Of a DNA stretch of 64,000 nt, positions 42,869 through 64,000 are shown in pieces. The translations under genes were made by a program, and so were the position numbers. The DNA is from Vicinamibacterales bacterium (lineage in GTDB: Bacteria; Acidobacteriota; Vicinamibacteria; Vicinamibacterales; UBA8438). The notes beneath the pieces were generated by a model. The model ran no database searches. It worked only from the letters and a program-made list of their open reading frames with translations, and was not told the DNA's origin. The stretch is from NCBI GenBank assembly GCA_963663815.1, contig OY760734.1; one strand, written 5' to 3'. Positions within the stretch are counted from its first letter, which is position 1; each line of letters begins with the position of its first letter.

Positions 42869-42873
42869 GGCAC

Positions 42874-43506: not shown

Positions 43507-43566
43507 CGAGCTTGAGAGTAGTCCCTGTCTCGCAAGAAAGGGCAACGAAATGGGATAGAGGTAAAG

Positions 43567-47239: not shown

Positions 47240-47248
47240 CTGCTTTCC

Positions 47249-47716: not shown

Positions 47717-47827
47717 CTCGTTCTTGACCTTGCGGACGAGATCCCACCACGGTGGAAACTTGACGGTTTCGGCCGCGAGGAGTTCGCGAATATACTCTGA
47801 TCCTAGGCCTTCCTGCAGGACGCGGAC

Positions 47828-48040
47828 TTGAGCGAGCGGCAGGCCGAAGCGTTGGTAGACGTATTCAGCAATGCCATCGGCGAACCCATAACGAGAACGG
47901 ACCTGGACGCCTTCAAGTCGGACATCAGAGCCGAAATCGCAGCGCTCGACGCCCGCATCGGTACTCTGGAGGCGCGAATCACTTGGCGAATCGTGCTCGC
48001 CCTCGGGGCATTCGCTGCTCTAGTTCGCCTGATGCCCTGA
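47828..48040 (+). CDS. DUF1640-like fragment (lacks about 10 N-terminal residues; TTG start in track)
   Basis: ..LSERQAEALVDVFSNAIGEPITRTDLDAFKSDIRAEIAALDARIGTLEARITWRIVLALGAFAALVRL.. Same architecture as 36870..37262. Two stop codons (TGA, TAG) lie in frame about 20-30 nt upstream. Confidence 0.4.
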   Translation: MSERQAEALVDVFSNAIGEPITRTDLDAFKSDIRAEIAALDARIGTLEARITWRIVLALGAFAALVRLMP

Positions 48041-48059
48041 ACCGCGCCCTAGACAAGCG

Positions 48060-49859
48060 TCAGAGCGTCTCAAACCACGCCTTCATCTTCAACGCCATGA
48101 GTCTGCGCCGCTCTTCCAGGAACTCATCGTAGGCAGGGATGACACCGTCAAGCAGCGACGCCGGAAGACAATGATCTGACAGGTTCTCGCGCAGGTTTTG
48201 TGCGTCTGTTATGCCGCCGTACCTCTTGCTTCCGCCGTTGCACTGGGCCGCGACCTCGGGAAAGTACGTGGCTGGTGGGTCGTCACCGATGGCGATATTG
48301 ATCTCGCTCTGCGCGATCACCAGATTCGCAATCTGGTTGTAGCGGCCGGCCGGCAGATGCATCGTCTTCTTGAGGTAGTTCCTGGGAAAGACATGATGCC
48401 GATCGCTTCTGTACGTCAGCAGGTCGTTCACGGTGATGTCCCTGGACAGGAATCCTCTGTCGCCCTGCTTCACCTGCGCGGCCTGGTACGCCAAGAAGTA
48501 CGGACTGTTCGACGATGACGTTTCCATCAACTGCGGGAGCATGCCGGTCCAAAAGCTCTCGGAAAGCTCATTATCGATCAGCATGCCGGCATACGCCGCC
48601 AAGCCCCGGGACTCGATCTGTCGGATATCCGTGTCGAAGGTCGTCTCAGGGTTTCCTGTGTAGCGCCTCCGTAGGGTTGCCATCACGTACCATCGCCTGA
48701 CGAGTCGTTCGAGGTCGGCAGCCGGCATCTTTTCCGCCCGACCGCGAAGATAGATGATGTACGCGAAATTGACGGCGTTGAGTCCACCGATCAGTGCGCT
48801 GCTCACGAAGCCCCCCGAGCGCAGGATCATCGTGATGCGATCGAAGTGGGTCTTGTTGACGAAGGCCAGGATGCCCTTTTTCAACCGCGCGAACGACGCC
48901 TCGGCGATGGCCTCCTCGTACTCCTTGGTCTCGAAGTTGCGGCCCGAGAGCAGCGCCACCAAGTCCTGCAACCGGCCGCGCCCGAACTCGGACGTGAACG
49001 CGACCCGCAGCATGTCCGTGTAGGTCGGGTCGTAGATGTCGTCGTTGACGTCGCTCAGCCAGCGCATGCGGGGGAGAAACTCGGATGTCGCGAAGGCCGT
49101 GTCTCCCTGCTCGATGCGTGACAGAAACTCGGGCGCCACGGCAAGATGGCAGAAGTAGTCGATGGCCTTCCGGAGAAGGTTGCCCCCGTACTTTTCGCTG
49201 GCCGCGATTTTCGACATGACGAAATCGGCTTGGGAGAGTTCCGCGCCCGCTGAGTTCACGCGGATGAAGATCTCGGTCACCGTCTCAATGTCGAGATCCT
49301 CGGCCAGCTCAATGATGCCAACGGAGTTGTTGACGATCTTCCGGAGTTTCTCCAGCACGAGCGACACGCGCCGTCGGTCGGCGTGGACGTTCTTGGCTGT
49401 GTAGGCATCGGTCAACTCAACCAGGTTGGCGTGAGGCGCGAAAACGTCGGCCACGTCCTCGATCCAGGACGCGTCCTTGCGAATCGCCGGGTTGGCAACT
49501 TCGAACCGCTCCTCAACGGGGTGGAAGGCGATGCTGATGCGAACGATCTCGTAGTCCTTGGTCAAGACCTCTTGACCGAGAAGCGCCGCCATCAGAGCGG
49601 TGACGCGTTGCTGACCGTCGATCAAGATCCGCTTCCCGGCCGAGGGTGTCCCGTCCTTCAGCTTGACGGTCGGATTCCGCCAAGCGATCAGGTAGCCGAC
49701 GGGGTAGCCGCGATAGAGTGAATCGAGGAGATTGCGAACTTTGGTCGCATCCCAGACGAACGGACGTTGGATCTCCGGAATCGCGATCTCGCCGGACTTC
49801 ACCCAGGTGAGCAGCGTTTCGATGGGATGGGGCGTCACCGAGTACCGTTGAATTACCAT
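48060..49859 (-). CDS. DUF262 (ParB-like, DGQQR) + C-terminal His-Me/HNH-like (DUF1524-type) protein: GmrSD/SspE-like type IV restriction enzyme candidate
   Basis: Start moved to MVIQRYSV (49859). ..[37 protein letters not shown].. C-terminus ..[11 protein letters not shown]...[18 protein letters not shown].. GC visibly lower than the flanks. Confidence 0.75.
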
Positions 49860-51517
49860 GAGTCGGACTCTTCCTCCCGCAGCCTCGCTGAGTTCGCAGG
49901 CGGGGCCAGCAATCGCGGCTGGCGGTGCCTTCCCGTGCATAGGGCACGGCGTTCCCGTGCATAGGGCACGGCGGCTGGCGCGCAACCCGAGATGGTACCA
50001 CGTCGTGTTGCTCGGGCAGGCGCTTCGACTCGAGGAAGCCCGTGCCGCACAGCAGAGCGGTGGCGAGCATCCGGCAGACCACCGGACGGCGCCGGCACCA
50101 CGACGGAGTCGTTCTGCTTCAGCGCGCTCAGGATCGCCTCGCCCTGGAACGGGCGGAAATCCCGTTTCCGGAAGATGTTCCGAAGGAACAGCGTCAGCGC
50201 CGGGCGCGCGTCAGCGTACGTTTCGGCCACCGCCGGGCGGCGGTTCCGGTCGTAGGACTGTCGAGTCGCCATCGGCGGCGGGATCGACGCGGGACGGATG
50301 ATGAAGTCGGGTTCTCCGGTTCGGTCGATGGCGTCGAACGGGCTTGAGTCGAATTCCACGGCGATGCGGAGTTTGTCGCAGGCGTTGGCCGGGGCGGCCG
50401 GCTCGCCTCCTTCAGACCTGTCGGCCGCATCGGGCGGCCAGGTGACGGGCGGGTTGTCGCCGGCGTGCACGGTGCAGGCTCTCGGCGCTGTCCGGGTGCC
50501 GTAGAGTGCGTCGAGCGCCGCGATCATGTCGAGAGCGTCGGTGACGCCTCCCGCGGCGGCTGCGCCGGCGCCGGTAACGGTGACACGCCAGTCGGCGCCG
50601 CGGGTAAGCCAGCCGTACTCGACGGCCCGCGCGAGCGCGAACTGGACCTTGGATGCCTTGGCGCACTCGATGGCCAGCGCGGCGGGTTCGCTGTGGCCGG
50701 CCGGCGGGAACGCTTCGAGCGCGGCCCGGGACCGCTCCTGGATGCGGTCGAGCGCCGGGCCGCGGCCGCGCATCACCTCGTCGTTGGTGACGCGGACGAC
50801 GTCGATCCCAACGTCGTGCAGCTCCTTGTCTCGGACGCGGTCGGCGTCGGGGTCGTGCTCGGGGCCGTCGAGCTCGACCGTGAACGGCCGGCCGGCCGGA
50901 TGGCAGAACAGGAAGTCGCTCCGGCGGGCGCCGGAGCCGTCTCCGAGGCCGGCGGCCTCAAGGAGCGTGTCGAGCGGCGCCTGCGGCGTGAACCAGTGTC
51001 CCCCCTCGGGTCCGAGGGCCTCCGGCACCCACCTTTTCAGGAACACCGCCTCGGCGTCGCTATCGACGAGCGCGTCGGTGTCGCCGGGCGTGCCGTCGAA
51101 AGACGGGTCGAGCGTGAACACGCGCTTCCTGAGCGCTTGCGCCAGGATCGTGTCCGCCCTGGCGCTGAGAGCGTCGTTCAGCTTCTCGCGGTTCCAGCCG
51201 ACCTCATGCGAGTCCTCGCCGAGTTCGGCGACCTGGTCGGTCAAGGCACCGGCCTTGAGCGCCGCGCGCTCGACCCCGAGCGTCGCGAGCGGGGTCCGCC
51301 CTCGGCGGAGGATCTTGATCAGCAGGCTGCTCGTGAACCGGGCGTCCGTCGTGCCTTCGAGCGACCGGCTGGAATTCGACAGCACGAGCGTCTGGCACAG
51401 CACCTTGCGCAAGCGGTTCGCCTTCGCGAGGTGGCGGTGGAGGATGCCGGGGAGCGAGCCGATGGAGACGTACTCGGCGGCGAAGCCGGGGCGACGTTGG
51501 GGCGTTTTCCGGTCCAC
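49853..51517 (-). pseudogene. N-terminal portion of a DUF559(Vsr/endonuclease-like)-RecQ-like helicase. Sensible sequence stops about 20 residues into helicase motif I (about 50080); the rest of the ORF is a nonsense tail.
   Basis: ..FLFCHPAGRPFTVELDGPEHDPDADRVRDKELHDVGIDVVRVTNDEV.. (DUF559 pattern). ..[38 protein letters not shown].. (RecQ Q-motif/motif I entry), then [13 protein letters not shown]... No Walker A lysine and no further helicase motifs. Confidence 0.5.
49930..49973. repeat. perfect tandem duplication of a 22-bp unit TTCCCGTGCATAGGGCACGGCG, each unit a 6-bp-stem hairpin (CCGTGC-atagg-GCACGG)
   Basis: Read directly. 71-114 nt upstream of the DUF262 gene start and inside the nonsense tail of the truncated helicase ORF. 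Confidence 0.85.
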
Positions 51518-51904
51518 TCGACCGGGAGGTCGAGCATCTGCCGATTCGTCGGTGGCCCGGGCGGGCCGCTCGGGCTGGGCTTCTTGCCCGTCTCCGGGCG
51601 GTCTAATGCGCGAGGACGCCGGCGCCGGCGGCGGGTCGGTCGGGGCTCGTCGGTCGCGATGCCGGGCGGGGGCGAGGTCGCGCGGGTTGTTCGCGTGTTC
51701 GCATGGGTCCGCGGGAATTGTAGGCCGGATGCGCTCGATGCATTGCGCCCGCCACTCCTGGGATGAGGCATCGTCGAATGGGCTCAGGCGACTCGCGTCT
51801 GGGAATGGCTGCCGGGAGGGAGGCGGTGGGCCCTTGGGGAGCCGTGGGTGCGCGCCCCGCTTTGCTCCCGAGGACGACTGCCGCTGGCGGACGCGAGGCG
51901 GCTG

Positions 51905-52174
51905 TCAACCGAGCCCAGCCACGTCGAGAGCGTCCGGCCGGGATGCGGTGCCTTGGGTGATGCGCTCCTCGAGGAACAGCTTGGCGTCGCGCCGCTTCGC
52001 GAACGCGGCCGAGGGGCGCCACTCTTCGGGCTGATCGGTTGCCTCGTGAACCTCCCAGCGGGCGGAGTCCGGTTGCGGTCCGGACTTCGTTCGTACGAGC
52101 CGCCAGCGGCCGTCGGGGGTGCGGTACTCTCGCCGGCCGTTCTTGCCCGGCTCGTGTCTCGGTGTCAGCTTCAT
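51905..52174 (-). CDS. small hypothetical protein
   Basis: MKLTPRHEPGKNGRREYRTPDGRWRLVRTKSG..WEVHEATDQPEEW.. Last gene of the primase operon. Confidence 0.4.
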   Translation of the reverse strand: MKLTPRHEPGKNGRREYRTPDGRWRLVRTKSGPQPDSARWEVHEATDQPEEWRPSAAFAKRRDAKLFLEERITQGTASRPDALDVAGLG

Positions 52175-52206
52175 GCGTTCGTGCTCTGTCGTTCCGCCGG
52201 CTGCTC

Positions 52207-52437
52207 TCACGCGCGCCCGGTCGTCACCCGTGCGATTCCACCCCCTCGGCGGGGAGCCGTCGTCTCGACGTCGCCCACGTGTGCGCCGACGTCGCCGGCG
52301 CCGAAGAGCGGGAGCTGGCGGAGCGCCTGGTCGACTTCGGCGACGGTGGCGGCCCTGAAGCCGTTGCCCGTGTCGACATCGACTCGAACTACTCCTGCCT
52401 CGTCGGTGGCCAGGACCCGCCAGCGGAGGATGGTCAT
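52207..52437 (-). CDS. small hypothetical protein (76 aa)
   Basis: ATG at 52437 coupled (ATGA) to the primase stop. MTILRWRVLATDEAGVVRVDVDTGNGFRAATVAEVDQALRQLP.. Confidence 0.4.
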   Translation of the reverse strand: MTILRWRVLATDEAGVVRVDVDTGNGFRAATVAEVDQALRQLPLFGAGDVGAHVGDVETTAPRRGGGIARVTTGRA

Positions 52438-53324
52438 GAGGGGCCTGCTGCCGTGACCAGGTTGCTCTCGCTCCGCACCCACTCGACGAGGGGCGCGACG
52501 TCGTCGGCGGCCCAGGCGTCCCAGGCGTCGAATCCCTCGGTCGCCGGCGCCCACCAGGGGAGGCCCGTCCTCACGGCGGCGTCGATGCCGGGACGGACGC
52601 CGTTCTCGTCCGGATGGTCGTGGTCCGCGATGACGGCGGCCGGGCGCCGGCCGAGCCGTCTGGCCGTCTCGAGGAGTCCGTTTCGGGAGAGGCAGGCCGC
52701 GACGCCGAGCGGCGGGTCGGTGATGCAGAGGGCGACCGCGAGGGCGGAGGCCACCCCCTCGGTGAGCAGGAGCGGTCCCGCCGCGCGCCAGCGGGGCGAC
52801 GTCGCGAGTCCAGAGAGCCGCAGGTCGCGCTGAAACCGCTTGGCGCCGTCGGGTAGGATGAACTGGGCGCCGGCGATGCCGGGAAGCAGCTGCCCGCCGG
52901 CGAAGGGCTTCAGCGGCACGAGCCACATGTCGCGGTGCGTCCAGACGAGCCGCTCGGAGTCGGGGAACTTCCGGCGGAAGTACGTCGGCTGGCCGCGGTG
53001 GGCGACGGCGAAGAGCCGCCGGGCGCGGCGGGCCTGGTCGGAGAGTGTCGGGTCGGCGAGCTCGACCGCGACGGTGGCCGGGCGCCGGCGCCGCGGCCGA
53101 ACCCGGGTGTCGAACGAGTCGCCGAGCAACGCGCGGTGCAGTTGCCGGTACGTGTGTCCGTGCCGGCATCGCGCGAGCACGGGTTGGACGCGCCCGGGCT
53201 TGATCCAGAAGCGGTCGTCGCCGGTCTGGCAGATCGGGCAGGGGCCGCAGTGCTCCTGCCCGCGGCGGCGGAGCGTGATGCCCTGCCGGCGGCACGCATC
53301 GATCCAGTCGTGGACCGTGGGCAT
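52434..53324 (-). CDS. primase-like protein: CHC2-type zinc finger + Toprim domain
   Basis: Start moved to MPTVHDWIDAC. ..EHCGPCPICQTGDDRFWI.. (Zn finger) ..LLLTEGVASALAV..AVIADHDHPDENG.. (Toprim E and DxD). Confidence 0.65.
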   Translation of the reverse strand: MPTVHDWIDACRRQGITLRRRGQEHCGPCPICQTGDDRFWIKPGRVQPVLARCRHGHTYRQLHRALLGDSFDTRVRPRRRRPATVAVELADPTLSDQARRARRLFAVAHRGQPTYFRRKFPDSERLVWTHRDMWLVPLKPFAGGQLLPGIAGAQFILPDGAKRFQRDLRLSGLATSPRWRAAGPLLLTEGVASALAVALCITDPPLGVAACLSRNGLLETARRLGRRPAAVIADHDHPDENGVRPGIDAAVRTGLPWWAPATEGFDAWDAWAADDVAPLVEWVRSESNLVTAAGPS

Positions 53325-53475
53325 GACTTGGTTCCGTTTCGATCGGGCCTGCAGGGCGCTCGAGCCCGGAGTGACGACCGTGGGGCTGTCCGAAGCCGGC
53401 ACCCTGCTGTCCGGCATGATATCCCGTCCTGTGCGCGCCGGAGCGAATCACTCGTCCAATCGGAGGGGGGCCTAC

Positions 53476-53991
53476 ATGAGATGGAGTTCGCTCGACACGG
53501 CCGCGCTGGTTGTCGCGGTCGGGGCGGCGCTGGCCGGTTGCGCATCGAGGGGGCCTCGCGCGGCCGAGATGGAGCAGGTGAGCGAACAGCGGGCCTGCCA
53601 GGTCCGCCCGGAGGCGTGCGGTCCGGAAGCCGGACTGGAGGCGTGGGCGGCGGGGCTGCGCCGCCTGCGTGCCGAGCAGTGCGGGACCGATCACGGTCTC
53701 GGACCCGGCGCGGCCGAGTTCGTTTGCGAGGAGCCGGCCCGGTTCGTGCGCTACGACTTCGACCTGATGCCATGGATGAACACGGACTGGGCATCGCGGC
53801 CTGGCCCCGCGCGCCGCGGTGCGCTCCTGTGCCGGGAAGGCGGCGGCTTCGCGGCCGTGGACAGCAGCTTCGGGGAGTTCTGGGTGCCGGTGCAGTACTA
53901 CCGGCAGGATCGCCACCCGCTGGTGCGGCTGATCCCGCAGCAGCGGATGGCCGGGTTCATCGCCTGGGCGCGGCGATCTTGCGCGGGGTGA
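53476..53991 (+). CDS. lipoprotein, hypothetical
   Basis: GGAGGGGGG upstream. MRWSSLDTAALVVAVGAALAGCAS = lipobox L-A-G-C. Confidence 0.6.
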   Translation: MRWSSLDTAALVVAVGAALAGCASRGPRAAEMEQVSEQRACQVRPEACGPEAGLEAWAAGLRRLRAEQCGTDHGLGPGAAEFVCEEPARFVRYDFDLMPWMNTDWASRPGPARRGALLCREGGGFAAVDSSFGEFWVPVQYYRQDRHPLVRLIPQQRMAGFIAWARRSCAG

Positions 53992-54002
53992 CTGCCGCGC
54001 AT

Positions 54003-54670
54003 TCACGGTTGGGATTCTCCGGCGAGATTCTCCAGCCGCGTCCGCTCGTCTTCGAGTTCCCTCAGGTAGGTGATGACTATGGAGCGGGCCGACGCGCCGG
54101 GGTTACCGGTTCTCGCGAGGGCGAAGGCGTCCCATGTATCGTCATAGAGCCGAGACGTTCCGGGGCCGTCATTGAAGTAGCCCCGGGCTTGGTCGAAGGC
54201 CATCTGGCTTCGGTCCGGGCGGCTTCAGCCTGGGCGGCGGTCGAGGCTGCGTGCTCTACCCGTTGCTCAAGCAGGTTCAGAACCTGCTGCTGAACTACCT
54301 CGACCTCGTCGAGGGTGACCGCCACTTCGTCGGAGCATCCGAGGACGTTCACGATTCGACAACCGGCTCTGCTGCGCAACCACCAGGACGACAGGCTGCT
54401 CGTGGCGGTTCGTCCACGCGATCGCCGTAAAGGGCTGCACCGGCGCGAAGCCCAGGGTCGCGAGGAGGTCGTTGACCTGGTCGACGGCGGGCGGGTGCTT
54501 CGTGAGCTCGTGCTGCTCGATGTCCAGGTGGTACTCTGCGGGGAGGGTTCCGAGGTAGTGGGCGTCGTCCTCGTACGCGGCTTCGATCGTACGGGGGTCG
54601 AGGTCGCCGGGGTGGTCGGGGATGGCGCAGACGATGAGCGGGTCCGCGTCCGAGGCTGAATGAGCGTCAT
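54003..54670 (-). pseudogene. coding signal that changes frame three times (ATG 54670 / good frame 54660-54400 / 54400-54210 / 54203-54003): decayed gene or several tiny genes
   Basis: MTLI | SASDADPLIVCAIPDHPGDLDPRTIEAAYEDDAHYLGTLPAEYHLDIEQHELTKHPPAVDQVNDLLATLGFAP..VVLVVAQQSRL | IVNVLGCSDEVAVTLDEVEVVQQQVLNLLEQ.. | MAFDQARGYFNDGPGTSRLYDDTWDAFALARTG.. Confidence 0.3.
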
Positions 54671-55071
54671 TGGTCCGTGCGGCGCGTCGTCGCCGCCGAA
54701 AGGCAGTCGTTGGCGACGAGGCTCCAGGAGTCCCTGACTGCGCCATCCCTTCCGGGCCACACGGTCTTGGTGAGGTCGCCCATCAGGCAGACCCCGCTTC
54801 CCTTCCTGCACTTCGCGAGCCGCGCGGCGGCGTCCCGGAAGGCGGTGACGTCGAGGAACCACGTCTGCGGTTCGGGCGCTCGGGGTCCGGTGACGTTGAC
54901 CGCGACCCTGGCCGTCGTGTAGTTCGCGCCGGCCTTCGAGGTGCGTTCGACGGGGTCGGCGACGAGCCGTCCGAACGCGGAGATCTGGACGTTGGGGGTC
55001 GGTGGAGCCGGCGGCGACCCCGTCGTTGTTGTCGTGGCCGGCGTGTCCGGGGCTGGCGCGTCAGCAGTCAT
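54667..55071 (-). CDS. ssb: single-stranded DNA-binding protein (OB fold), plasmid/phage type
   Basis: ..VQISAFGRLVADPVERTSKAGANYTTARVAVNV...WFLDVTAFRDAAARLAKCRKGSGVCLMGDL.. is the typical SSB strand pattern. Confidence 0.55.
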   Translation of the reverse strand: MTADAPAPDTPATTTTTGSPPAPPTPNVQISAFGRLVADPVERTSKAGANYTTARVAVNVTGPRAPEPQTWFLDVTAFRDAAARLAKCRKGSGVCLMGDLTKTVWPGRDGAVRDSWSLVANDCLSAATTRRTDQ

Positions 55072-55085
55072 CGGGTCGGAGCCTG

Positions 55086-55415
55086 TCAGGGAACAGCGGG
55101 AGCCTGGGGGAGCACGGCGCGTTCGAGTGTTTCGAGGCGCTGCTCGACCTTGCCGAACTCGATCTCGACGTTGCGAAGCCGGGTGTTGAACTCGCGATGG
55201 TCCTCGCGCATTTCGCGATGGTCCTCTCGCATGTCGCCGCGGAGCGTGTCGAGCCGACGGTCGACGGATTCGACGCGACCGTTCAGGGCGTCCATCTGAC
55301 CGGTGATCGTGGCCAGATGGTCGTTGATTCCGCTTGCGACGATAGCGATGGTGCTCACGATGATCGTCGTGATCGCGAGCCCGGTTCCGATGATGGTCAG
55401 GTTCGTCTGGTTCAT
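55086..55415 (-). CDS. N-terminally anchored coiled-coil protein
   Basis: MNQTNLTIIGTGLAITTIIVSTIAIVASG.., then heptad-like ..LRGDMREDHREMREDHREFNTRLRNVEIEF.. Confidence 0.5.
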   Translation of the reverse strand: MNQTNLTIIGTGLAITTIIVSTIAIVASGINDHLATITGQMDALNGRVESVDRRLDTLRGDMREDHREMREDHREFNTRLRNVEIEFGKVEQRLETLERAVLPQAPAVP

Positions 55416-55422
55416 CTTGGCC

Positions 55423-55713
55423 TCACATTACCACGGCCCGCCCCATCGGGGCCGTGCCTCCCTCCGGTCCGCTCCGAGCCTCCCGGGCCCGTGCGGCGTT
55501 CCCGGCCGGACGCTCGCCGGTGGGCACCTCCAGACAGCCCGGGCAGTCCACCTGGCCGTCGTCGGATGCCAGCCGTTCGTCGGCTGTCGGCAGGCCGCAA
55601 GCGGTCAGGGTCTCGTCAGTCTCGTGCCACTCGTGAACCCAGGCTCGTGAACCCGGTGGCGTTGCGGGTTCGGCCGCGAGCGCAGCGAGCGGACGAACGA
55701 ACCAGGCCCTCAC
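55423..55713 (-). CDS. small hypothetical protein with a CxxC pair
   Basis: ..WHETDETLTACGLPTADERLASDDGQVDCPGCLEV.. First gene of the minus-strand operon. Confidence 0.3.
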   Translation of the reverse strand: MRAWFVRPLAALAAEPATPPGSRAWVHEWHETDETLTACGLPTADERLASDDGQVDCPGCLEVPTGERPAGNAARAREARSGPEGGTAPMGRAVVM

Positions 55714-55804
55714 GTCGTTCCGCGGTTCGGATTCCCTCCATCACGCCACTCTAGCCCCCCCTCCCCCCCTGTGCTCGCAGGCTGCAACTCGCGGCGCGAT
55801 AGTG

Positions 55805-56290
55805 GGGCCCCGACCCGGCGGGCCAGGGTCGTCCGGCGACACTCGACCCGCCGACGTGACCGGCGGGTCGCTCGTGATGGTCGGTCGCTTCCGACCCCGC
55901 AGGACATCGCGGGGTCGTCCATGGTGCGCGCGAGGAAACAGCCCTCTGGTCGTGGTCCCGACCCGGCAGGCCAGGTCGTCCGATGGCGTGATTGTGAGGT
56001 CCCGACCCGGTGGGCCAGGGTCGTCCAGGCGGAACTCGACCCGCCGACGTGGTCGGCGGGTCGCCGTTGATGGTCGGTCGTTTCCGACCCCGCAGGACAT
56101 CGCGGGGTCGTCCAGGGTGCGCGTGAGAAACAGCCCTCTGGTCGTGGCCCCGACCCGGCGAGCCGGGTCGTTCGACGAAGCTCGATCCTTGGCCGGGTCG
56201 CCCGGTGCTGGTCGGTCTCCCGACCCGGACGGAAGAGCCGACCCGAGCGGCCGGGTCGCTCGAAACGCGCCGATCCGGGTCGTTCCGGAA
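55805..56290. repeat. array of GC-rich hairpins built on CGACCC(N)..(N)GGGTCG: 192-bp unit x2 (about 88% identity by eye) plus a degenerate third part
   Basis: Units start at 55805 and 55997. Examples: CGACCCGCCGacgtgacCGGCGGGTCG, CGACCCCGCaggacatcGCGGGGTCG. About 10 hairpins in the 650-bp divergent intergenic region before the ParB-like gene. Confidence 0.85.
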
Positions 56291-56370
56291 CCGGTTGGCC
56301 CCCACGAGCGTGTGTGGTACGTTCGGCCCCTCGGGGCGTTCCGCGTGAGACTGTCGCGGGAGTGGGGGAG

Positions 56371-57591
56371 ATGGATTCAGAGCACGAGGCGCAGGACGAG
56401 CTGGTCGAGATCGGCGGCAGGCAGTACCGGGTCCATCCGGCGGCGGCGATGTTCCCGATCATGTTCGGCCGCGAGTTCGACGAGCTGGTCGAGGACGTGC
56501 GCGTCAACGGGCTGCGCGAGCGGGTCGTCGTCAGGGGCGACCAGCTGGTAGACGGGCGGAACCGGGTCCGAGCGTGCGCGGCTGCCGGTGTCGTCCCGGA
56601 GGTCCGGGAGCTGGAGCGCGGGACCGACGTGGCGTCGTGGGTGATGTCGGTGAACGTGCACCGGCGTCACCTGGACGCGTCGCAACGGGCCCTGTTGGCG
56701 AGCCGCCTGTCCGCGCTGAGCGGTGAGGTGACGTTGATCCAGGCCGGGGAGCTGATGGGCGTATCGCGGGCCTCGGTGGCACGGGCGGCCGCGGTCGAGA
56801 AGGGCCCCGAGCCGCTGAGAGCCGCCGCCCGCGACGGCGTCGTGTCGGTGGGCGACGCCTACGAGTCGCGCGGCGAGGCGCCGGAGACCATCGAGCAGCT
56901 GGTCGAGGACGTTCGCTCCGGCGCGGCGCCGAATCTGAGGGCCGCGAAGCGCCAGCGGGGCATCGCGGACAAGCCCCGGAAGAAGGACCCGCGGGGCCGG
57001 AAGCCGAAGACCGCGGCCACCGACGCAGGGCAATCGTCGGGCGAGACGGGCGATGGCGGCGGCGGGGTCGCGCTCGGGCGGCTCGTGGATCCGGAGGAGC
57101 CGGGTCCGGGGCGTCCACCGACGTCGCTGGGTTCGGAAGCGGAGACGCTGTTCTCGGGAGCCGAGGGTCTCGCAGCCGGTGAGGCGAACGTCGCCCCGAA
57201 CCCGGGAGATCTGCGCAGCCGAGCGGAAGCCGCCCTGGGCGGAGACGGGGCCGTGGAGGGGTCGAGCATCGGCGAGGGAGCCCCGTGGCCTGCCGAGGGC
57301 GGCGTGGTGTGGCTGACCGGGGAGGGCGGTCTGGACGGGGTAGTCGAGCGGGTAGTGGACTGCGTCAAGAAGGTCTCGGAGTCGGGCGGGGTGGTCGTGG
57401 CCGGGCCTGCGGACGTCGGGTCAGCCGCAACGCAACGCCTCATGGCTCTCCCGGAGCTGACCGCGGTGTCGTTCGAGCGTGCGTCGGGAGGTGAGCTTCC
57501 GCGGATGCTGTGGGGGTTCCGAGTGGGGCTGGGCGACTTCAGAAGGGCGTGCGACGGGTTCGGGGTCGTTCTGGAGACGGCGTCTCGGTAG
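56371..57591 (+). CDS. ParB-like nuclease-domain protein (ParB/Srx fold + HTH) with a long disordered C-terminal half
   Basis: GGGGGAG upstream of the ATG at 56371. ..YRVHPAAAMFPIMFGREFDELVEDVRVNGLRERVVVRGDQLVDGRNRVRAC.. ..IQAGELMGVSRASVARA.. Confidence 0.6.
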   Translation: MDSEHEAQDELVEIGGRQYRVHPAAAMFPIMFGREFDELVEDVRVNGLRERVVVRGDQLVDGRNRVRACAAAGVVPEVRELERGTDVASWVMSVNVHRRHLDASQRALLASRLSALSGEVTLIQAGELMGVSRASVARAAAVEKGPEPLRAAARDGVVSVGDAYESRGEAPETIEQLVEDVRSGAAPNLRAAKRQRGIADKPRKKDPRGRKPKTAATDAGQSSGETGDGGGGVALGRLVDPEEPGPGRPPTSLGSEAETLFSGAEGLAAGEANVAPNPGDLRSRAEAALGGDGAVEGSSIGEGAPWPAEGGVVWLTGEGGLDGVVERVVDCVKKVSESGGVVVAGPADVGSAATQRLMALPELTAVSFERASGGELPRMLWGFRVGLGDFRRACDGFGVVLETASR

Positions 57592-57683: not shown

Positions 57684-58601
57684 TCACGGACGCATGGGCG
57701 AAGCAGTAGCGCCGGCCGGGGGCGGTGCGGGGAGCTCGAAGGGCAGGGCGTTGGCCGGGCTGTAGACGGGCATGCCGTCCTGGCCGGCCTCCTCGGGGCT
57801 GTCGGCGCCGGCCCCGTCGGTGTCTCGCGTGACGCAGAGGCGTTGGCCGGCGGCGCGCAGGGGCTCGAGAAACGCGATAGGCGAGACGGTGGCGACCTCG
57901 GTGGAGGCGATGCCGTGAGCGGTGTTGATCTGGCGGACGTACCGTGCGGCGTCACCCCAGTGGTAGAGGCGGCCGTCAGGGCTCTGCAGCATGTGGATGT
58001 GCGGCGCGTCCGCGTTGGTGTGGCAGATGACCCGGCTCCGGGCCCAGGGCAGCGGCCAGGCGTAGGGACGGGGCAGCGATGTGAGGCGCGCCACGGCGGT
58101 CTGGTCGAGGAGCAAGCTGTCGTCGAGTGCCTCCCATGGCGGGGGCGTGGCCGACGCCTGCCGGGGGTCCGCTTCCGGCGGCTCATGGGAATCAGGGGCG
58201 GCCTCGTCGGGCCGGCGTTCGGGCTCGGGCGTCTCGCTTGCCGGCTCGGGCACGTCTACGTCAACGCGGCTGGCGACGACGGCGGGGGAGTCCGGTTCAA
58301 CGATCTCGGCGGCCGCCGGTGGCGGAGCGGTGGGCACCGATGTCGTGACGGCCGTCTCACCGGGCTCGACGACTTCGTCGGCGAGTTCCGGCTCGTTGTC
58401 GGGCCCTCGCGGCGTGAAGATCACGAGCAAGGCCAAGGCCAGCAGAGCGACGGCCGCGTAGACCACGGGCGAGTGCGTTGGCGGCAGGCGTAGCCGCAGT
58501 CTGGGCGGCGCGGTGAGCTTGGGCAACCGCAGCTTGAAGCGACGGGCGGGGGCAGCAGGCTCGTCAGGAGCCGGTGCGTCGGGTCGGTTGTGCTCGGTCA
58601 T
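57684..58601 (-). CDS. membrane-anchored hypothetical protein (Pro/Glu-rich linker)
   Basis: ATG coupled (ATGA) to the parG-like stop. TM ..VVYAAVALLALALLVIF.. Confidence 0.5.
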   Translation of the reverse strand: MTEHNRPDAPAPDEPAAPARRFKLRLPKLTAPPRLRLRLPPTHSPVVYAAVALLALALLVIFTPRGPDNEPELADEVVEPGETAVTTSVPTAPPPAAAEIVEPDSPAVVASRVDVDVPEPASETPEPERRPDEAAPDSHEPPEADPRQASATPPPWEALDDSLLLDQTAVARLTSLPRPYAWPLPWARSRVICHTNADAPHIHMLQSPDGRLYHWGDAARYVRQINTAHGIASTEVATVSPIAFLEPLRAAGQRLCVTRDTDGAGADSPEEAGQDGMPVYSPANALPFELPAPPPAGATASPMRP

Positions 58602-58915
58602 TGGTGGTCGCCCTCGTGGTCGTCCAGGTACTCGACGATCGCGTCGATCACGATGTCTCGGGCCGCGCGGTCGGCGTCGATCGCGTAGTGGCGCAGCCGC
58701 CGGTGGAGCTTGCGCGGCATTAGGATGTTCATTGTAACGGGGGCGGCCGGCTGCGGCTCGGGTCGGGCCGCGCGTTGCGGCGCCGCGGCCGCGGGAGGCG
58801 TTGATGGCGGTCCGGAAGGCATCGGTGTCGGCTTCGCGGGCGGGGGCGCCGGTTCGCTCTCGGCGTCTTCGTTGAGCTTCTGGAGGGCGTCGGTGAGGTC
58901 CTTGCGGTCGGTCAT
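58598..58915 (-). CDS. ParG-like centromere-binding protein (disordered N-terminus + C-terminal RHH)
   Basis: ATG at 58915 overlaps the parA stop. C-terminus ..MNILMPRKLHRRLRHYAIDADRAARDIVIDAIVEYL.. is an RHH pattern. Confidence 0.55.
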   Translation of the reverse strand: MTDRKDLTDALQKLNEDAESEPAPPPAKPTPMPSGPPSTPPAAAAPQRAARPEPQPAAPVTMNILMPRKLHRRLRHYAIDADRAARDIVIDAIVEYLDDHEGDHQ

Positions 58916-59655
58916 GCAGTCTCCTTGGTGTCTGCCTGCGGTAGCGCCCGGACGGAGACGAGCCAGTCGTAGAGCTCGACGAGCTCTACGGCGGCCTTGG
59001 TGCCGGGCTCGGTCTCGGCGGCGCAGCGGCCGGAGTTGAAGGCGTGGCTGTGGGCGATGCGTTGATGCAGCGTGACCGGGCAGATCGCGACGTCGGCGGC
59101 GGCCAGGATCCGGTGGCTCTGCGCGATTGTCGGGTGGTTGACGATGGCGCGGTTGATGACGACCGTGGCGGGTGTGCCGGCGCTCTCGGCGATCTGGATG
59201 GTCTGGTGAATGGCCCGGAGGTCGGGAGCGGAGGGCTGGACGGGGATGAGGATGTGGTCGGCGACGGTGGCCACCGTGAACGCGTCTCCTCCGGAATGCG
59301 GAGCGGTGTCGATCACGCAGAGCGTGGCGCCCAGCGGCGCCATTCGGCCCAGCATTCGTTCGAGGCGGTTGGCGTGAGCCGGGAGGACGTCGGGGTGCTC
59401 GAGGCCGGCGTCCTGGCGGAGGTCGTGCCAGTTGCAGGCGCTGCCCTGGGGGTCGACGTCGAGGAGGACGGCTCGGTGCCCGGCCTGTTCGGCGAGCGCG
59501 GCAATCGCGCAGGACAGGGTGGTCTTGCCGGTGCCGCCTTTCTGCGAGAGCACTGCAAGCACAGGAGGCCTGGTGGGCTTGATGACCAGTGACGGCATGC
59601 CAGCAACGGAAACATCCGCAACTGTTGTGCCATCCGGTGACGATGGTCTCTCCAT
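58912..59655 (-). CDS. parA: ParA/ParF-type partition ATPase (deviant Walker A)
   Basis: ..LAVLSQKGGTGKTTLSCAIA..VLLDVDPQGS..CVIDTAP.. An alternative start at 59598 (MPSLVIK..) is possible. Confidence 0.85.
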   Translation of the reverse strand: MERPSSPDGTTVADVSVAGMPSLVIKPTRPPVLAVLSQKGGTGKTTLSCAIAALAEQAGHRAVLLDVDPQGSACNWHDLRQDAGLEHPDVLPAHANRLERMLGRMAPLGATLCVIDTAPHSGGDAFTVATVADHILIPVQPSAPDLRAIHQTIQIAESAGTPATVVINRAIVNHPTIAQSHRILAAADVAICPVTLHQRIAHSHAFNSGRCAAETEPGTKAAVELVELYDWLVSVRALPQADTKETA

Positions 59656-59689: not shown

Positions 59690-59790
59690 CCACGATGTTG
59701 TTCTGTAGTGCGTTACGGGCGTTCAGAGTGTATTGTCAGTGTCAATGGTTATGAGTGTAGTATTTGTAATGGTTGATTAAGATGGAATAT
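59690..59790. promoter_or_regulatory. AT-rich region upstream of parA with two adjacent approx 26-bp imperfect direct repeats (GAGTGTA..TTGT..AATGGTT): candidate partition site/operator
   Basis: Repeats at 59726-59752 and 59753-59777. This is the most AT-rich stretch in this part of the window. Confidence 0.45.
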
Positions 59791-60331: not shown

Positions 60332-60494
60332 TCTCTCACTTCCGCGGAGCGGACAAATCCAGCCTGAGCGACCCCCGCGGTGCTGACCCAGGAGTGACAC
60401 CTTGGTTTCACGCTCTGGGTCAGGAACGAGTAGTACGTAGCGGGGTCGCTCAGGTGTTGCTTTCCACTGCCTATGCGGAGCTCTGCATAGGCAG

Positions 60495-60580
60495 TGCTAT
60501 GCGGAGTTCGGGACTATGCGGAGTTGGCTCGGCGGGCCGCGTTGACTAGGGCATTTGCGTGGAGCGGTACTCCGCATAGT
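60495..60580. repeat. left terminal inverted repeat of the RIT element
   Basis: Contains three copies of the CTATGCGGAG / CTCCGCATAG motif. The inner end overlaps the stop of the third recombinase. Confidence 0.75.
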
Positions 60581-61581
60581 CAGAGGCCTTCCAGGAAGTT
60601 GAGGAGCCGGTCGGTGGCGGTGAACCGGAGTGGCTGAGGTGCGGGATCGTCGACGCACCGGAGTGCCGCCTCCTTCATGGCGAGGTCGGCTTCGACGTAC
60701 TGGTGGGTGGTGGCGGTGTTCTCGTGGCCGAGCCAGAGGGCGATGACGGTGATGTCGACTCCGGACTGGAGCAGGTGCATCGCGGTGGTGTGGCGCAGCG
60801 TGTGGGGCGAGATCCGCCGCGTCGCGAGCGACGGGTGACGCTCCGCGGCCTTTCGGCAGGCGACGCGCAGTTGATGTTCGACCCCGGAGCGCGACAAGGG
60901 CTTGCCCGCGCGATTGGGGAACACGGGGGCGTCGGGGTTTCCATCGATTCGGAGGAGCCACCTCCGCAGTTGCGCTACGGTGCTCTTCCAGAGCGGGACG
61001 ACACGCTCCTTGCGTCCCTTGCCGTGCAGAAGCAGCGAGGACGCCCGGTCGACGAGCACGTCGGCGACGTGCAGCCGGGTGATCTCGGAGACGCGGGCGC
61101 CGGTGTTGTAGAGCACGGCGAAGAGGACGGCGTCGCGCTGCCCGCTCCAGGTGGACCGGTCGGGCGCGTCGATGATCGCCGTGATCTCGTCGCGGGACAG
61201 GTAGCCGAGGACGGGCCGGTCGAAGCGCTTGACGGGAATCGCGAGGACGCGTTGCGCGACGGGCAGCAGGGGTGGCTCGCGCAGCGAGGCGTAGCGCATG
61301 AAGGACCGGATGGCGGTGAGCCGGAGGTTGCGGGTGCGCACGGAGTTGCCGCGTTCGGTCTCGAGATGGTCGAGGAAGCCGAGGACCATGGGCGCACCGA
61401 GATCCGAGAGGGTCAGCGCCGAGGGGGTGCGTCCGGTGCGCTCTGCGGCGTATCCGAGGAACAACGTGAAGGTGTCGCGGTAGCTGGCGATCGTGTGCGC
61501 GCTGGCGCCCCGTTGTGCGATGAGGCGCCCGTGGAAGAACTCCTGCAGGAGTGCGGGGAACGCCCGCTCGACGGAGGTCAT
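60580..61581 (-). CDS. tyrosine recombinase, third of trio (RitC position)
   Basis: Start moved to the ATG at 61581, coupled (ATGA) to the upstream stop. ..GARVSEITRLHVADV..ISPHTLRHTTAMHLLQSGVDITVIALWLGHENTATTHQYVE.. Confidence 0.85.
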   Translation of the reverse strand: MTSVERAFPALLQEFFHGRLIAQRGASAHTIASYRDTFTLFLGYAAERTGRTPSALTLSDLGAPMVLGFLDHLETERGNSVRTRNLRLTAIRSFMRYASLREPPLLPVAQRVLAIPVKRFDRPVLGYLSRDEITAIIDAPDRSTWSGQRDAVLFAVLYNTGARVSEITRLHVADVLVDRASSLLLHGKGRKERVVPLWKSTVAQLRRWLLRIDGNPDAPVFPNRAGKPLSRSGVEHQLRVACRKAAERHPSLATRRISPHTLRHTTAMHLLQSGVDITVIALWLGHENTATTHQYVEADLAMKEAALRCVDDPAPQPLRFTATDRLLNFLEGL

Positions 61582-62537
61582 GACGGGCGCTCCGACACTC
61601 GGTGGGCGAAGCGTTCGAAACGCTGCCCGGTGGTGGCGAGCAACTCGGGGACGGCGGTGCAGTACCAGTAGGTGTGGGCGACCCCGGTGTGGCCGAGGTA
61701 GGTTGCGAGAGCCAGGATCTTGCGATCCACATCTGCGCCTTCCTGGTGCCAGCGCAGCAGCCGACGAACGACAAAGCTGTGGCGCAGGTCGTGGATGCGC
61801 GGTTGGGACGTACGCCCTTGCGCGGTCCAGCCGAGACGCCGCCTGAGCTTGCGGAACATCCTCTTCACAGCGGTGTGAGTGAGCCGGGGCGAATGCTCGG
61901 TGCGGAAGAAGTACTGAGACCCGGGTGCGGCAAGACACGCGTCACGGCGGTTGGCGTAGCGACGCAGTGCCCGGGTCGTGGTCGGATGGAGCGGGACGAG
62001 CCGGGACTTGCGGAACTTGGTCTCGCGGATGGTCAGGATGCCGTCGGCGAGGTCGGCGTCGTCGGTCGTGAGACGGCAGGCCTCGGACAGCCGCAGGCCG
62101 GTCGACGCCAACAGGGCGAAGAACGCGACATAGGTCGCGGGTCGCAACCCGCCTCGGGGCCGCAAGCAGCGTGCCTTCTGCAGGAGCGCGGCGATCTCCG
62201 CCTCGGTATAGATGTGGGGCGTGGAGCGGCGCGTCGGGATGCGTCCCAGGAGCCCGACCGGCGGCACTTCGGTGGCCGGTTCGACGAGTGCGCGGTACCG
62301 GGCGAACTGCCGCACGATCGTCAGTCGGCGTGCAGCCTGCGCCGGATTGCTTGAGCGTGAGGAGGATCGTGCCCACTGGACCGCGAGCTCGATTGTCACG
62401 GGCCCGCTGTGTCCGACCCGCTCTGCATGGCGGGCGAAGTCCCTCAGGAACCACTCCTGCGATTCGAGGCCGAAGCCCAGTCCGCGGCGCGCGGTGAGGT
62501 ACTCGTCGACCAGATGATGGAAGTTTGGAGGCGTCAT
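61578..62537 (-). CDS. tyrosine recombinase, second of trio (RitB position)
   Basis: ..GLRLSEACRLTTDDADLADGILTI..IHDLRHSFVVRRLLRW..LATYLGHTGVAHTYWY.. Confidence 0.85.
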   Translation of the reverse strand: MTPPNFHHLVDEYLTARRGLGFGLESQEWFLRDFARHAERVGHSGPVTIELAVQWARSSSRSSNPAQAARRLTIVRQFARYRALVEPATEVPPVGLLGRIPTRRSTPHIYTEAEIAALLQKARCLRPRGGLRPATYVAFFALLASTGLRLSEACRLTTDDADLADGILTIRETKFRKSRLVPLHPTTTRALRRYANRRDACLAAPGSQYFFRTEHSPRLTHTAVKRMFRKLRRRLGWTAQGRTSQPRIHDLRHSFVVRRLLRWHQEGADVDRKILALATYLGHTGVAHTYWYCTAVPELLATTGQRFERFAHRVSERPS

Positions 62538-63457
62538 CGGCGCACCTCCGGCCAGGGGAGCGCGACCTCACGCAACCGCGGCAGGTCGAGCTTGGCGTAG
62601 ACCATCGTGGTGTCGAGGCTGCGATGGCCGAGCACGTCAGCGACCTCCTTGAGGCTGGCTCCCGCTCGCACCATGCTGGTGGCGACGGTGTGCCGGAAGA
62701 CGTTGGCGCCGGTGTGCGGCGCGTCGACTGCCGCCCGGCGAACCGCGAATGTCGCGACACGTGACACGGCAGGGCTCGAGAGCGGCTTGCCGCGACGATC
62801 TCCCAGGTGGACGACGAACACCCGGCGTTCGTCGGTCGCCGGACGCTCCCGGCTCAGATAGGCGACCAGCGCCTGCCCCACCACGCGGGGCAGCGGCAGC
62901 ACGGCGCCTCGACGGTTCTTGCGGGTGCGTATCTGCAGGGTGCCGCCGCGCCAGTCGATGTCGTCCAGACACAGGTTGGCGACCTCGCCGGGCCGCAGCC
63001 CCAGGGTCGCCAAGCACTGCACGATTGCCTGGTCGCGATGCCCGCACGGGGTGGAGGCGTCGAACGACGCGAGCACCTGCTTGACCTGTTGCTCGGTCAG
63101 GGAACGAGGGAGCGTCGCAAGCCGCCAATGGGCGACGGTCGGGAGAGCCGCTTCAAGTGCGTCGCCGCAGAATCCCTCGACGCGCAGGAACCGGAAGAAC
63201 GACCGCAACGATGACCGCGCGGTCTGCATCGACGCGGGAGAGAATCGGTGACGCAGCGACGTGATGAACGCCACCACGGCGGCCGGCGTCAGGCGGCTGG
63301 GGTCGATCGGGTCTGCGCCAAGAGTGGCCCGGACGAGCTTCTGGGCGAACCAGGCGCGGATGCGCAACGTGTGAGGGCGCAAGCCGCGCGTACGTCGTTG
63401 GTGGTGGGTGTACTCGTCGACGAGGCGGTCGACGGTCCACGAGCCGTGAACGGTCAT
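62534..63457 (-). CDS. tyrosine recombinase, first of trio (RitA position)
   Basis: ..GLRPGEVANLCLDDIDWRGGTLQI..HVFRHTVATSMVRAGASLKEVADVLGHRSLDTTMVYAK.. Confidence 0.85.
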   Translation of the reverse strand: MTVHGSWTVDRLVDEYTHHQRRTRGLRPHTLRIRAWFAQKLVRATLGADPIDPSRLTPAAVVAFITSLRHRFSPASMQTARSSLRSFFRFLRVEGFCGDALEAALPTVAHWRLATLPRSLTEQQVKQVLASFDASTPCGHRDQAIVQCLATLGLRPGEVANLCLDDIDWRGGTLQIRTRKNRRGAVLPLPRVVGQALVAYLSRERPATDERRVFVVHLGDRRGKPLSSPAVSRVATFAVRRAAVDAPHTGANVFRHTVATSMVRAGASLKEVADVLGHRSLDTTMVYAKLDLPRLREVALPWPEVRR

Positions 63458-63503
63458 GGGCGTGCTCCTTTCCGGCCAATCTGGCCGGATAGAAGCATCC
63501 CAA

Positions 63504-63610
63504 ACTATGCGGAGTACCCCGAACCGGTCAGCTCACGTAACCCTCGTCTTGACAGGTACTTGAGAGCGAACCCTCAACCGACTCCGCATAGTCCCGAACT
63601 CCGCATAGCA
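63504..63610. repeat. right terminal inverted repeat of the RIT element
   Basis: ACTATGCGGAGTACC at the inner end, ACTCCGCATAGTCCCGAACTCCGCATAGCA at the outer end. Confidence 0.75.
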
Positions 63611-64000
63611 GTCAGGCGGTGACCCAAACTGTGTTGTTGTCGCAGTCGTAAGTGTCTATTTTTCAGTAGTTTGAGTTGTGGGGAGCATGGAATCAGGTCC
63701 ACACTAGGCGTGGAAATTGGGTCAAGTCGATGGATTCCACGGTTTGGGTCACTCAGAGGAGAAATCAAGGGCGTTTTTGGTACCTTGAACTCGGGGTTGT
63801 GTGGGTCACGGCGTGCAGGTACGGGAGAGTATCAATTGATATTCCATCTGTGTCTCGATGATAGTGCCTGTGTTCATCCCGACGGCGTTCTGCGCTCTCT
63901 GTACAAGCAACTGGCCCAGTCATGCATGAGCTGGCGTCTGCGTTCGAAACAAGTCGGATCGGGCGTACGCCGTCTCGGTGTGGTTGCGAACGGCGTGGGC

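Follow-up and report, generated by a model that had tools for sequence, protein, structure and literature searches.

A hairpin-capable array of split palindromes upstream of a ParB-family gene in a Vicinamibacterales conjugative element: a candidate multi-site loading and operator platform

What reads, or makes use of, a block of about ten GC-rich inverted repeats that fills the gap between two diverging transcription units of a mobile element? The question is raised by positions 55805-56290 of a 64-kb stretch of DNA (the window, to which all coordinates refer; contig OY760734.1) from a Vicinamibacterales bacterium, in which the block precedes a ParB-like gene of an integrative conjugative element (ICE). 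The initial annotation described an array of CGACCC...GGGTCG hairpins arranged as a 192-bp tandem duplication, and proposed a binding platform for the ParB-like protein, a region for origin of transfer (oriT) or single-strand initiation (ssi), a structured RNA, or a cluster of repetitive extragenic palindromic (REP) elements. Analysis of the window and of the 12-21-kb flanks of related loci indicates that the array is genuine, is not a product of chance and is peculiar to this element family. Judged by its sequence, it fits best among ParB-family cis sites or operator arrays; its split-palindrome, hairpin-capable architecture is unusual, and the soil lineage that carries it is unstudied. The reading that fits best, with a probability of roughly 0.45, is that it may serve as a multi-site loading and operator platform, akin to parS, bisS or OB, for the adjacent ParB-family protein.

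According to Tandem Repeats Finder, positions 55793-56175 hold a repeat with a period of 193, 2.0 copies and 89% matches, and a separate repeat search reproduces the 192/193-nt register, in agreement with the proposed duplication. Repeat searches and locus comparison divide it into unit 1 (55793-55984) and unit 2 (55985-56176), which are 89% identical and each contain the expected four elements, here called A, B, C and A'. The following segment (56177-56290) had been taken for a degenerate third portion, but is not a decayed copy; it is a tail of distinct elements, D, E and F, present in every intact orthologous locus. Units and ~115-bp tail together hold 12 elements of the form CGACCC-N(0-15)-GGGTCG inside the non-coding gap.

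In unit 1, element A1 (55811-55831; CGACCCGGC-GGG-CCAGGGTCG) is imperfect, B1 (55844-55870) has a 10-bp stem around the centre ACGTGAC, C1 (55892-55917) has a 9-bp stem around AGGACATC, and A'1 (55959-55978; CGACCCGGCAGGCCAGGTCG) contains one C.A mismatch on the + strand. In unit 2, A2 (56003-56023) was located by pattern match, B2 (56037-56063) forms a perfect 12-bp stem with the loop GTG, C2 (56085-56110) has the same sequence as C1, and A'2 (56151-56170; CGACCCGGC-GA-GCCGGGTCG) is a perfect 20-bp palindrome. Within the tail, element D (56183-56200) reads CGATCC-TTGGCC-GGGTCG in the window, and element E (56221-56258) consists of a lone left arm (56221-56228) followed by CGACCCG-AGCGGC-CGGGTCG (56239-56258). 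In element F (56271-56282; CGATCC|GGGTCG) the two half-sites abut, as they do in parS, the Noc-binding site (NBS) and bisS.

Counted as short words, the array contains 19 GGTCG and 10 CGACC, about 29 copies in ~500 bp, mostly in inverted pairs; about nine additional GGTCG words on the + strand belong to no such pair. The core word of the site logo, counting both orientations, is gCCgGGTCG, and successive right arms are irregularly spaced (24-61 nt). Across the 64 kb, CGACCC-N(4-30)-GGGTCG occurs 12 times, compared with 1.4 expected and a maximum of six in 100 shuffles, and nine of the 12 matches fall within 55811-56258; five are perfect hairpins with stems of 9-12 bp. Two isolated matches, at 21983-21999 and 582-620, one of them a perfect 7-bp hairpin in an open reading frame (ORF) of the secretion region, are probably due to chance.

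Codon-position GC bias is absent from 55650-56320 and clear in both flanks of the codon-position GC plot. Thus, the long ORFs drawn across the array are spurious products of GC content, as had been supposed. An array of clustered regularly interspaced short palindromic repeats was likewise rightly dismissed, since the elements are heterogeneous, the spacers of the two units are homologous and the spacing is irregular. An iteron-type origin of vegetative replication does not fit either, because the repeats are inverted and 24-61 nt apart, and the RepA_C gene (5019-5885) lies 50 kb away.

Orthologous loci, found by exact-protein look-up and a genome scan, include seven intact copies of the ICE that share one grammar: a C-rich header, (A-B-C)n, A'-D-E-F, a TTGGCC-17 nt-TACGTT promoter and the ATG of the ParB-like gene. 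Elements A and A' follow CGACCCGG-CRRG-CCGGGTCG, B is CGACCC-N13-15-GGGTCG with a conserved GACGT centre, and C is CGACCCCGC-AGGACATC-GCGGGGTCG. D corresponds to CGACCC-TTGGCC-GGGTCG, E is a lone left arm followed by CGACCCG-N5-7-CGGGTCG, and F is CGATCC|GGGTCG with abutting half-sites. The stem of B is just 6 bp long in five of the seven loci. The 192-bp duplication is present in the window and in L001, whereas L002, L006, L008 and L009 have a single unit. L007 carries an independent duplication of ~148 bp, and other expansions occur in L010 and L011. Since joints of both unit loss and unit gain appear in a DNA metagenome run, copy number is polymorphic, and the array has expanded independently in several lineages. 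More distant relatives (L003, L204 and L205; 67-70% protein identity) still carry between one and five GGGTCGTCC-type words ahead of the same conserved promoter; their left arms have decayed while GGGTCGTCC is kept.

The seven-locus alignment reveals where constraint lies. Mean pairwise identity is 0.93 for the hexamer arms, 0.80 for the centres (loops), 0.74 for the spacers and 0.83 for the promoter and untranslated region (UTR); in the ParB-like gene it is 0.92 and 0.91 at codon positions 1 and 2 and 0.80 at position 3. The arms are therefore conserved like non-synonymous sites, and centres and spacers drift like third codon positions. Although 96% of the stem cells pair, nearly all pairs are invariant, and covariation is not significant (one compensatory pair, equalled by 134 of 500 shuffles). 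G.T mismatches on the + strand exceed A.C mismatches (~10 vs 5), a difference confounded by a + strand C-to-T bias. Within 12-21 kb around each of 10 related loci, the pattern is almost confined to the array. Conserved arms, the lack of significant covariation and the lack of dispersal together indicate that selection preserves the sequence of the arms. This argues for sequence-specific recognition by a protein rather than for a generic RNA or DNA fold.

The same data make it extremely unlikely that the array is a generic repeat without an element-specific role, be it a family of REP-like or miniature inverted-repeat transposable elements or slippage-prone palindromes that merely expand. Unstable copy number and recurrent expansions would suit such an origin, as would the isolated A-type 20-mers found, among the matches listed, in many GC-rich metagenome contigs. 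However, the pattern is dispersed neither in the window nor in the flanks, the 8-mer CCGGGTCG is not enriched outside the array (18 occurrences vs ~14 expected for the whole window), and drifting spacers between constrained arms do not fit neutral expansion. All 80 of the 80 metagenome matches fetched are lone palindromes, with neither an array nor a ParB-like gene. Isolated palindromes are expected by chance at such GC content, and the metagenome scan is informative only against the REP interpretation, which the initial annotation had entertained and which is not borne out in the window or in the flanks.

The location of the array relative to the flanking promoters bears on an RNA function. 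The predicted sigma-70-type promoter of the ParB-like gene (56295-56323, + strand; TTGGCC, 17 nt, TACGTT, with GTGTGG before it) is strongly conserved in the seven loci, and element F lies 12 bp upstream of its -35 box. On the other side, the header (55743-55792), a C-rich block followed by CTGTGCYCGCAGGC..GCGATWGT, was delimited by locus comparison as the conserved left module edge; it is found in all related loci, even in copies without the array. It probably carries the 5' UTR and the -10 region (CACTAT/GACAAT, - strand, read by eye) of a leftward operon. Promoter positions derive from by-eye reading plus conservation, and a strict consensus scan for promoters and terminators around the array on both strands reported no site. 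The array takes up the interval from the beginning of the leftward operon to the -35 box that serves the ParB-like gene, and would thus sit upstream of both promoters. In several loci, breakpoints fall together at the C-run/CTGTGCC of the header, suggesting a recombination-prone junction. In L056, a Bryobacterales-labelled contig, header and array begin inside a gene that by eye resembles a P4-type integrase (1700-1860).

Transcription of the array as a leader, a small RNA or a set of protein-sequestering repeated hairpins is decidedly unlikely. In its favour, the hairpins are many and stable, one metatranscriptome run yields a 192-nt contig of low depth over 56134-56318, and the loops of element C carry CAGGACAUC, which presumably resembles the GGA loops bound by CsrA-type proteins. 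That contig, however, is weak, undirected and possibly due to DNA carry-over. The array cannot be the leader RNA of the ParB-like gene if the predicted promoter of that gene lies downstream of it, and an origin in either flanking promoter is disfavoured by its location upstream of both. Rfam 15 contains no relevant match even at E<=1, the scan found no terminator-like site, and the stems are invariant rather than covarying. Furthermore, the 521-nt stretch as a whole folds only moderately better than shuffled sequences do, and to a similar degree on both strands (z = -2.6 and -3.0).

The protein best placed to read the arms is the 406-aa product of the ParB-family gene (56371-57591, + strand). 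It combines a ParB N-domain carrying the nucleotide-binding motif GxxR (G62-R65), a helix-turn-helix (HTH) domain, a linker that is basic and disordered and, at the C-terminus, a small alpha/beta domain. An AlphaFold (AF2) model based on a 76-sequence alignment reaches a predicted local distance difference test score of ~90 over residues 1-200. Foldseek aligns the N-domain plus HTH with ParB-CDP, Spo0J, Noc and KorB (6sdk, 1vz0, 7nfu, 6t1f and 8qa9; E 2e-8 to 5e-5, probability 1.0, target-normalised TM score <=0.57), and a profile search of PDB sequences aligns the protein with Noc and ParB in the same way, at weak significance (E 0.027). The GxxR motif is present as DGRNRVRA; among the 76 homologues G62, R63, R65, R98 and R99 are invariant and N64 is nearly so. 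The invariant arginines outside GxxR are presumably equivalent to the N..R box of ParB. Structural matches of the C-terminal region (310-395) to methyltransferases are not significant, and the more distant homologues are ParB_N domains fused to MT-A70, N6_N4 or Dam methyltransferases. An exact-protein look-up returned no record of the window's own protein. The label "ParB-like" given initially thus holds at the level of the predicted fold, and the protein is a divergent orphan branch of the ParB/Noc/KorB fold.

The platform reading is favoured because a conserved short word occurs in inverted pairs that end in CCC/GGG and always lies beside a ParB-fold HTH protein; the pairing of array and protein is inferred from this adjacency, the fold and the conservation pattern. 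The CCC|GGG ending of the arms is presumably comparable to that of the NBS of Noc. It is also shared with bisS of ICEclc, which reads GAGCTATCCCCnGGGGATAGCTC (PMC12409273), and ParB-fold regulators are known on mobile elements, namely KorB on RK2 (PMC11790492) and BisD on ICEclc (PMC12409273). In the proposed mechanism, the HTH domains would recognise the half-sites as double-stranded DNA, and the many sites would serve to nucleate or load a ParB complex of higher order or of clamp-like form, possibly in a nucleotide-dependent manner, as at parS, bisS, OB and sopC. Such a complex would cover the ~480 bp between the diverging promoters, autoregulate the ParB-like gene via the promoter next to element F, and repress or time the leftward operon, which encodes a Cys-rich protein, a coiled-coil protein, a single-strand DNA-binding protein (SSB) and a possible primase. 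By analogy, this operon resembles the establishment or "leading-region" genes of conjugative elements. Repression would be absent immediately after entry into a new cell and would rise as the ParB-like protein accumulates.

Several observations weigh against this platform. At the sequence level, the protein has no Pfam match at E<=0.01, and TIGR00180 (NCBIfam parB_part) scores 17 bits against a cutoff of 58 (E 0.003). The gap between half-site hexamers varies (0, 5-9 and 13-16 nt), a spread incompatible with a rigid ParB dimer bound to a 14-16-bp palindrome, and the CTP-clamp ParBs known so far rely on a single perfect palindrome or a few of them rather than on at least ten split ones. The flanks of the elements are asymmetric, the + strand being pyrimidine-rich on both outer sides (YCC-CGACCC...GGGTCG-YYC). 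In elements A and C and in B of the window's lineage, complementarity extends 3-6 bp beyond the common hexamer with bases that differ per element, which looks like selection for pairing as a hairpin or cruciform and not for the half-site only. Unlike the OB sites of KorB, array-type sites are absent elsewhere on the element. The adjacency of array and gene across copies reflects shared ancestry of close relatives and is not independent evidence. Upstream of ~60 distant ParB-like homologues, the only arrays are coding-sequence repeats (L030 and L024) and one member of the same family (L056), so this survey gives no independent sign of co-evolution. Finally, the binder could be another DNA-binding protein of the element.

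The ParG-like protein, which had also been suggested as binder, is an unlikely candidate. To the right of the ParB-like gene, the - strand encodes a 305-aa ORF and a type-Ib-like partition operon (58598-59655) consisting of parA (58912-59655) and a ribbon-helix-helix (RHH), parG-like gene (58598-58915). AT-rich AGTGTA/GTGTA repeats lie directly upstream of parA (~59700-59790) and are likely the operator or centromere of the ParA-RHH pair. Since parA-parG thus has repeats of its own, the array is probably not the centromere of that system.

Among the systems compared, BisD-bisS of ICEclc from Pseudomonas is similar in that an orphan ParB-fold protein with GxxR and HTH is encoded on an ICE, and in that the inverted repeats, centred on CCCC-n-GGGG, lie in the regulatory/ssb part of the element (PMC12409273). 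BisD is a ParB-like CTP clamp that regulates ICE genes and does not act in segregation (PMC12409273). Yet bisS consists of two identical 11-bp inverted repeats 2 kb apart inside genes, one of them ssb (PMC12409273), whereas the array packs at least ten split palindromes of differing sequence into a single intergenic block of 500 bp. An activator domain and a partner, BisC, are further features of BisD, neither of which is seen here.

KorB of the IncP plasmid RK2 offers a second parallel, supported by Foldseek matches of the ParB-like protein to KorB structures (E ~3e-5). The RK2 operons repressed by KorB include an ssb-containing one. KorB is a repressor of backbone operons with the ParB-CTPase fold, acting from palindromic operators near to or distant from diverging promoters (PMC11790492). 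OB differs in being a single 13-bp palindrome with 12 sites around RK2, whereas the array sites are all in one place; the partners of KorB are IncC, a ParA, and KorA, whereas ParA of this element, encoded 1.3 kb from the ParB-like gene, is in an operon with the RHH protein.

Repeated centromeres such as sopC of F (12 x 43 bp, each with an inverted repeat), parC of R1 and pB171, and parH of TP228 are similar as tandem binding sites beside a partition-type gene that double as operators and vary in copy number. They differ in their uniform, regularly spaced units within the operon of the cognate ParA; the array is heterogeneous, its spacing is irregular, and the nearby ParA has its own RHH partner and upstream repeats.

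A further resemblance is to the clt loci of Streptomyces plasmids, whose TraB recognition sequences (TRS) are 8-bp GACCCGGA repeats: GACCCGG occurs nine times in the array, twice as the full GACCCGGA. The element, however, encodes a diderm VirB/VirD4 machinery (VirB9, VirB10 and VirB11) and no TraB/FtsK-type translocase, and the similarity is probably a coincidence.

A role as nucleotide-gated regulators of mobile elements is emerging for proteins of the ParB fold (KorB, BisD and VirB), each of which acts through one or a few perfect palindromes. At least ten split, variably spaced palindromes between diverging promoters would reveal flexibility in how such proteins recognise and load onto their sites. 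The array would also offer a first way into how a family of conjugative elements is regulated in Vicinamibacterales, which are abundant and uncultured and virtually unstudied as regards gene transfer. Should the active form be the hairpin, ParB-type proteins would be tied to the single-stranded phase of conjugation.

This last prospect underlies a variant of the platform, itself improbable, in which the ParB-fold protein would read the sites as extruded hairpins or cruciforms, or as hairpins of the incoming strand. The array would then act as a strand-sensing platform: when the transferred DNA arrives or is converted, the ParB-like protein would load and the establishment genes would be switched off. 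Such a mode would jointly explain the conserved stem base, the variable loop length and the element-specific extensions of the stems.

The main and a serious rival to the platform, though still unlikely, is that the array works as single-stranded DNA hairpins during conjugation. Here, the + strand would be transferred after nicking near 46.4-46.5 kb, and the 46.7-55.7-kb segment would enter first. The roughly ten GC-rich hairpins at its far end would prime the complementary strand in an ssi-like manner, perhaps for the Toprim-like protein. Alternatively, they would stall complementary synthesis and thereby prolong early expression, as reported for the single-stranded promoter of the F plasmid. 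The gene content of the segment is suggestive. The leftward genes include SSB and a weakly supported primase-like protein, and L003 adds RadC, large ParB_N proteins and DUF4326, a typical leading-region set. All leftward genes use the + strand as template, matching the rule that the transferred strand serves as template for the genes of leading regions (PMC11541004). A structure in single-stranded DNA that acts as a replication roadblock is documented for F (bioRxiv 10.64898/2026.01.09.698686). The stems of A, B and C, which exceed the common hexamer in differing ways, also agree with a role for pairing. The GC skew at third codon positions (GC3) is positive in the + strand sense on genes of both strands throughout the window (0.1-0.4), an asymmetry that could stem from the transferred or displaced strand but equally from the host replichore during chromosomal replication.

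Against the single-strand hypothesis, it is the sequence of the stems that is conserved and not merely their pairing, the distant relatives lose left arms while GGGTCGTCC persists, and the stem of B is so short in most loci. Mutation bias accounts for the excess of G.T wobbles on the + strand. The array shares with Frpo and ssi sites that structured non-coding DNA heads an SSB operon whose template could be the transferred strand (PMC11541004; bioRxiv 10.64898/2026.01.09.698686). The array consists of many short GC-rich hairpins with a common stem base and without promoter boxes on either strand, and is therefore not Frpo-like. Frpo itself is one long imperfect hairpin of ~300 nt that recreates -35 and -10 boxes. 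The transferred strand is conjectural as well, because no relaxase or nic site was found in searches of the window. For the relaxase these comprised Pfam, NCBIfam, PHROGs and PDB sequences and addressed the large unassigned ORFs.

The assumed nick would fall in a second structured region, a conserved, hairpin-rich non-coding stretch at 45860-46750 (+ strand), which is a candidate oriT or novel non-coding RNA on the basis of its sequence. It contains at least ten GC-rich hairpins, several with CGCYCTTCA loops, and a G-rich run at 46070-46110. One-sided substitutions in these hairpins (G.U on the + strand, C.A on the - strand) favour folding of the + strand, a further point for single-strand function. 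A 40-nt core (GACTGTGCGTGCAAGCCAACCTC..CCTGGCACGGCG; 46443-46490) follows a 10-bp inverted repeat and recurs in a different context in L063. The region has no Rfam or plasmid match. Counterparts occur in L001 (3656-4597), L011 (4795-5274), L035 (1-640) and L063 (5245-5840 and 8782), and partially in L010. In four degenerate copies (L010, L011, L035 and L063), the equivalent of 46.7-55.7 kb is absent and the 46-kb region abuts the header/array. The missing block (46750-55742), which in the window contains small - strand genes, GmrSD, a DUF559 protein, the possible primase, SSB and others, behaves as variable cargo or as a "leading-region" island bounded by the 46-kb region and the header/array.

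These degenerate copies also bear on the suggestion that the array itself is oriT or part of it, with repeats that bind relaxase or accessory proteins near a nic site, which is very unlikely. Regions of this kind are intergenic, contain many inverted as well as direct repeats and often separate diverging operons, in the neighbourhood of leading-region genes and of genes for partition-like HTH proteins, as in stbA-oriT-trwA of R388. The array agrees with this description in being intergenic, repeat-rich and adjacent to the SSB and ParB-like genes. The context thus lends the oriT/ssi proposal of the initial annotation some support, but the proposal ranks below the platform. The usual oriT has one relaxase-binding repeat next to nic and not at least ten equivalents, neither a relaxase gene nor an accessory RHH gene lies next to the array, the gene for the coupling protein is 28 kb away, and there is no similarity to plasmid DNA. 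Since degenerate copies keep the 46-kb region but can lose the array, as in L035 and L063, the 46-kb region is the better oriT candidate.

The assignment of the window to an ICE of Vicinamibacterales follows from its diderm-type VirB/VirD4 type IV secretion system together with its chromosomal relatives. The secretion genes encode VirB4 (14482-17214), VirB9/CagX (17133-18236), VirB10/TrbI (18453-20615), VirB6/TrbL (22741-23868), VirD4 (24917-27589) and VirB11 (27606-28847). Topoisomerase III, RepA_C, a LexA-like repressor and tyrosine recombinases at both ends are also encoded, and close homologues of the ParB-like gene reside in 6.6-7.2-Mb chromosomes of metagenome-assembled genomes of Vicinamibacterales (Acidobacteriota). 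A phage or Streptomyces plasmid context was rejected, as similar phage or plasmid records and structural PHROGs are absent and the secretion system is of the diderm type. Two large ORFs after virB11 (29981-35321; 1001 and 769 aa) have a strong coding signal and no match in Pfam, NCBIfam, PHROGs or PDB sequences.

The leftward operon begins with the gene for the small Cys-rich (CxxC-type) protein (55423-55742, - strand). Relative to L001, this gene has a 4-nt insertion (gaac) at 55690-55700 (4-nt variant at 55693) that splits it into an ATG-started frame of 42 codons and a GTG-started frame of 96 aa; the 4-nt-shorter variant is present in the population, as seen in a DNA run. The next gene (55086-55415, - strand) encodes a 109-aa protein with an N-terminus that appears hydrophobic by eye and matches to coiled-coil families. 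Within it, a 21-nt tandem repeat (55192-55237, 2.2 copies) encodes a repeated MREDHRE motif. SSB (54667-55071, - strand) is identified by PF00436 (E 1.3e-12). The possible Zn-ribbon/Toprim primase (52434-53417, - strand; 327 aa) is suggested by CxxC...CxxC, TEG and DHDHPD motifs read by eye. It has no match in Pfam, NCBIfam or PDB searches; its sole database support is a weak match to PHROG 510 "DNA primase" (E 0.003).

Low-GC islands at 42000-44400 (0.55) and 48000-50000 (0.61), compared with ~0.70-0.75, are both probably later cargo; one contains a DUF2971 protein together with part of a resolvase, and a GmrSD-type restriction enzyme (48060-49985) is encoded in the other. Compared with L006, L007 and L008, the window has an insertion of ~3.1 kb (60465-63613) that holds two tandem tyrosine recombinase genes on the - strand (61578-62537 and 62534-63457). 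Its left edge (60465-60590) carries five copies of CTATGCGGAG in direct and inverted orientation, possibly binding sites of the recombinases. Lastly, a GAGCGCAGCGAGCG motif occurs once to the left of the array (55678-55691) and three times in L003 (9436-9530).

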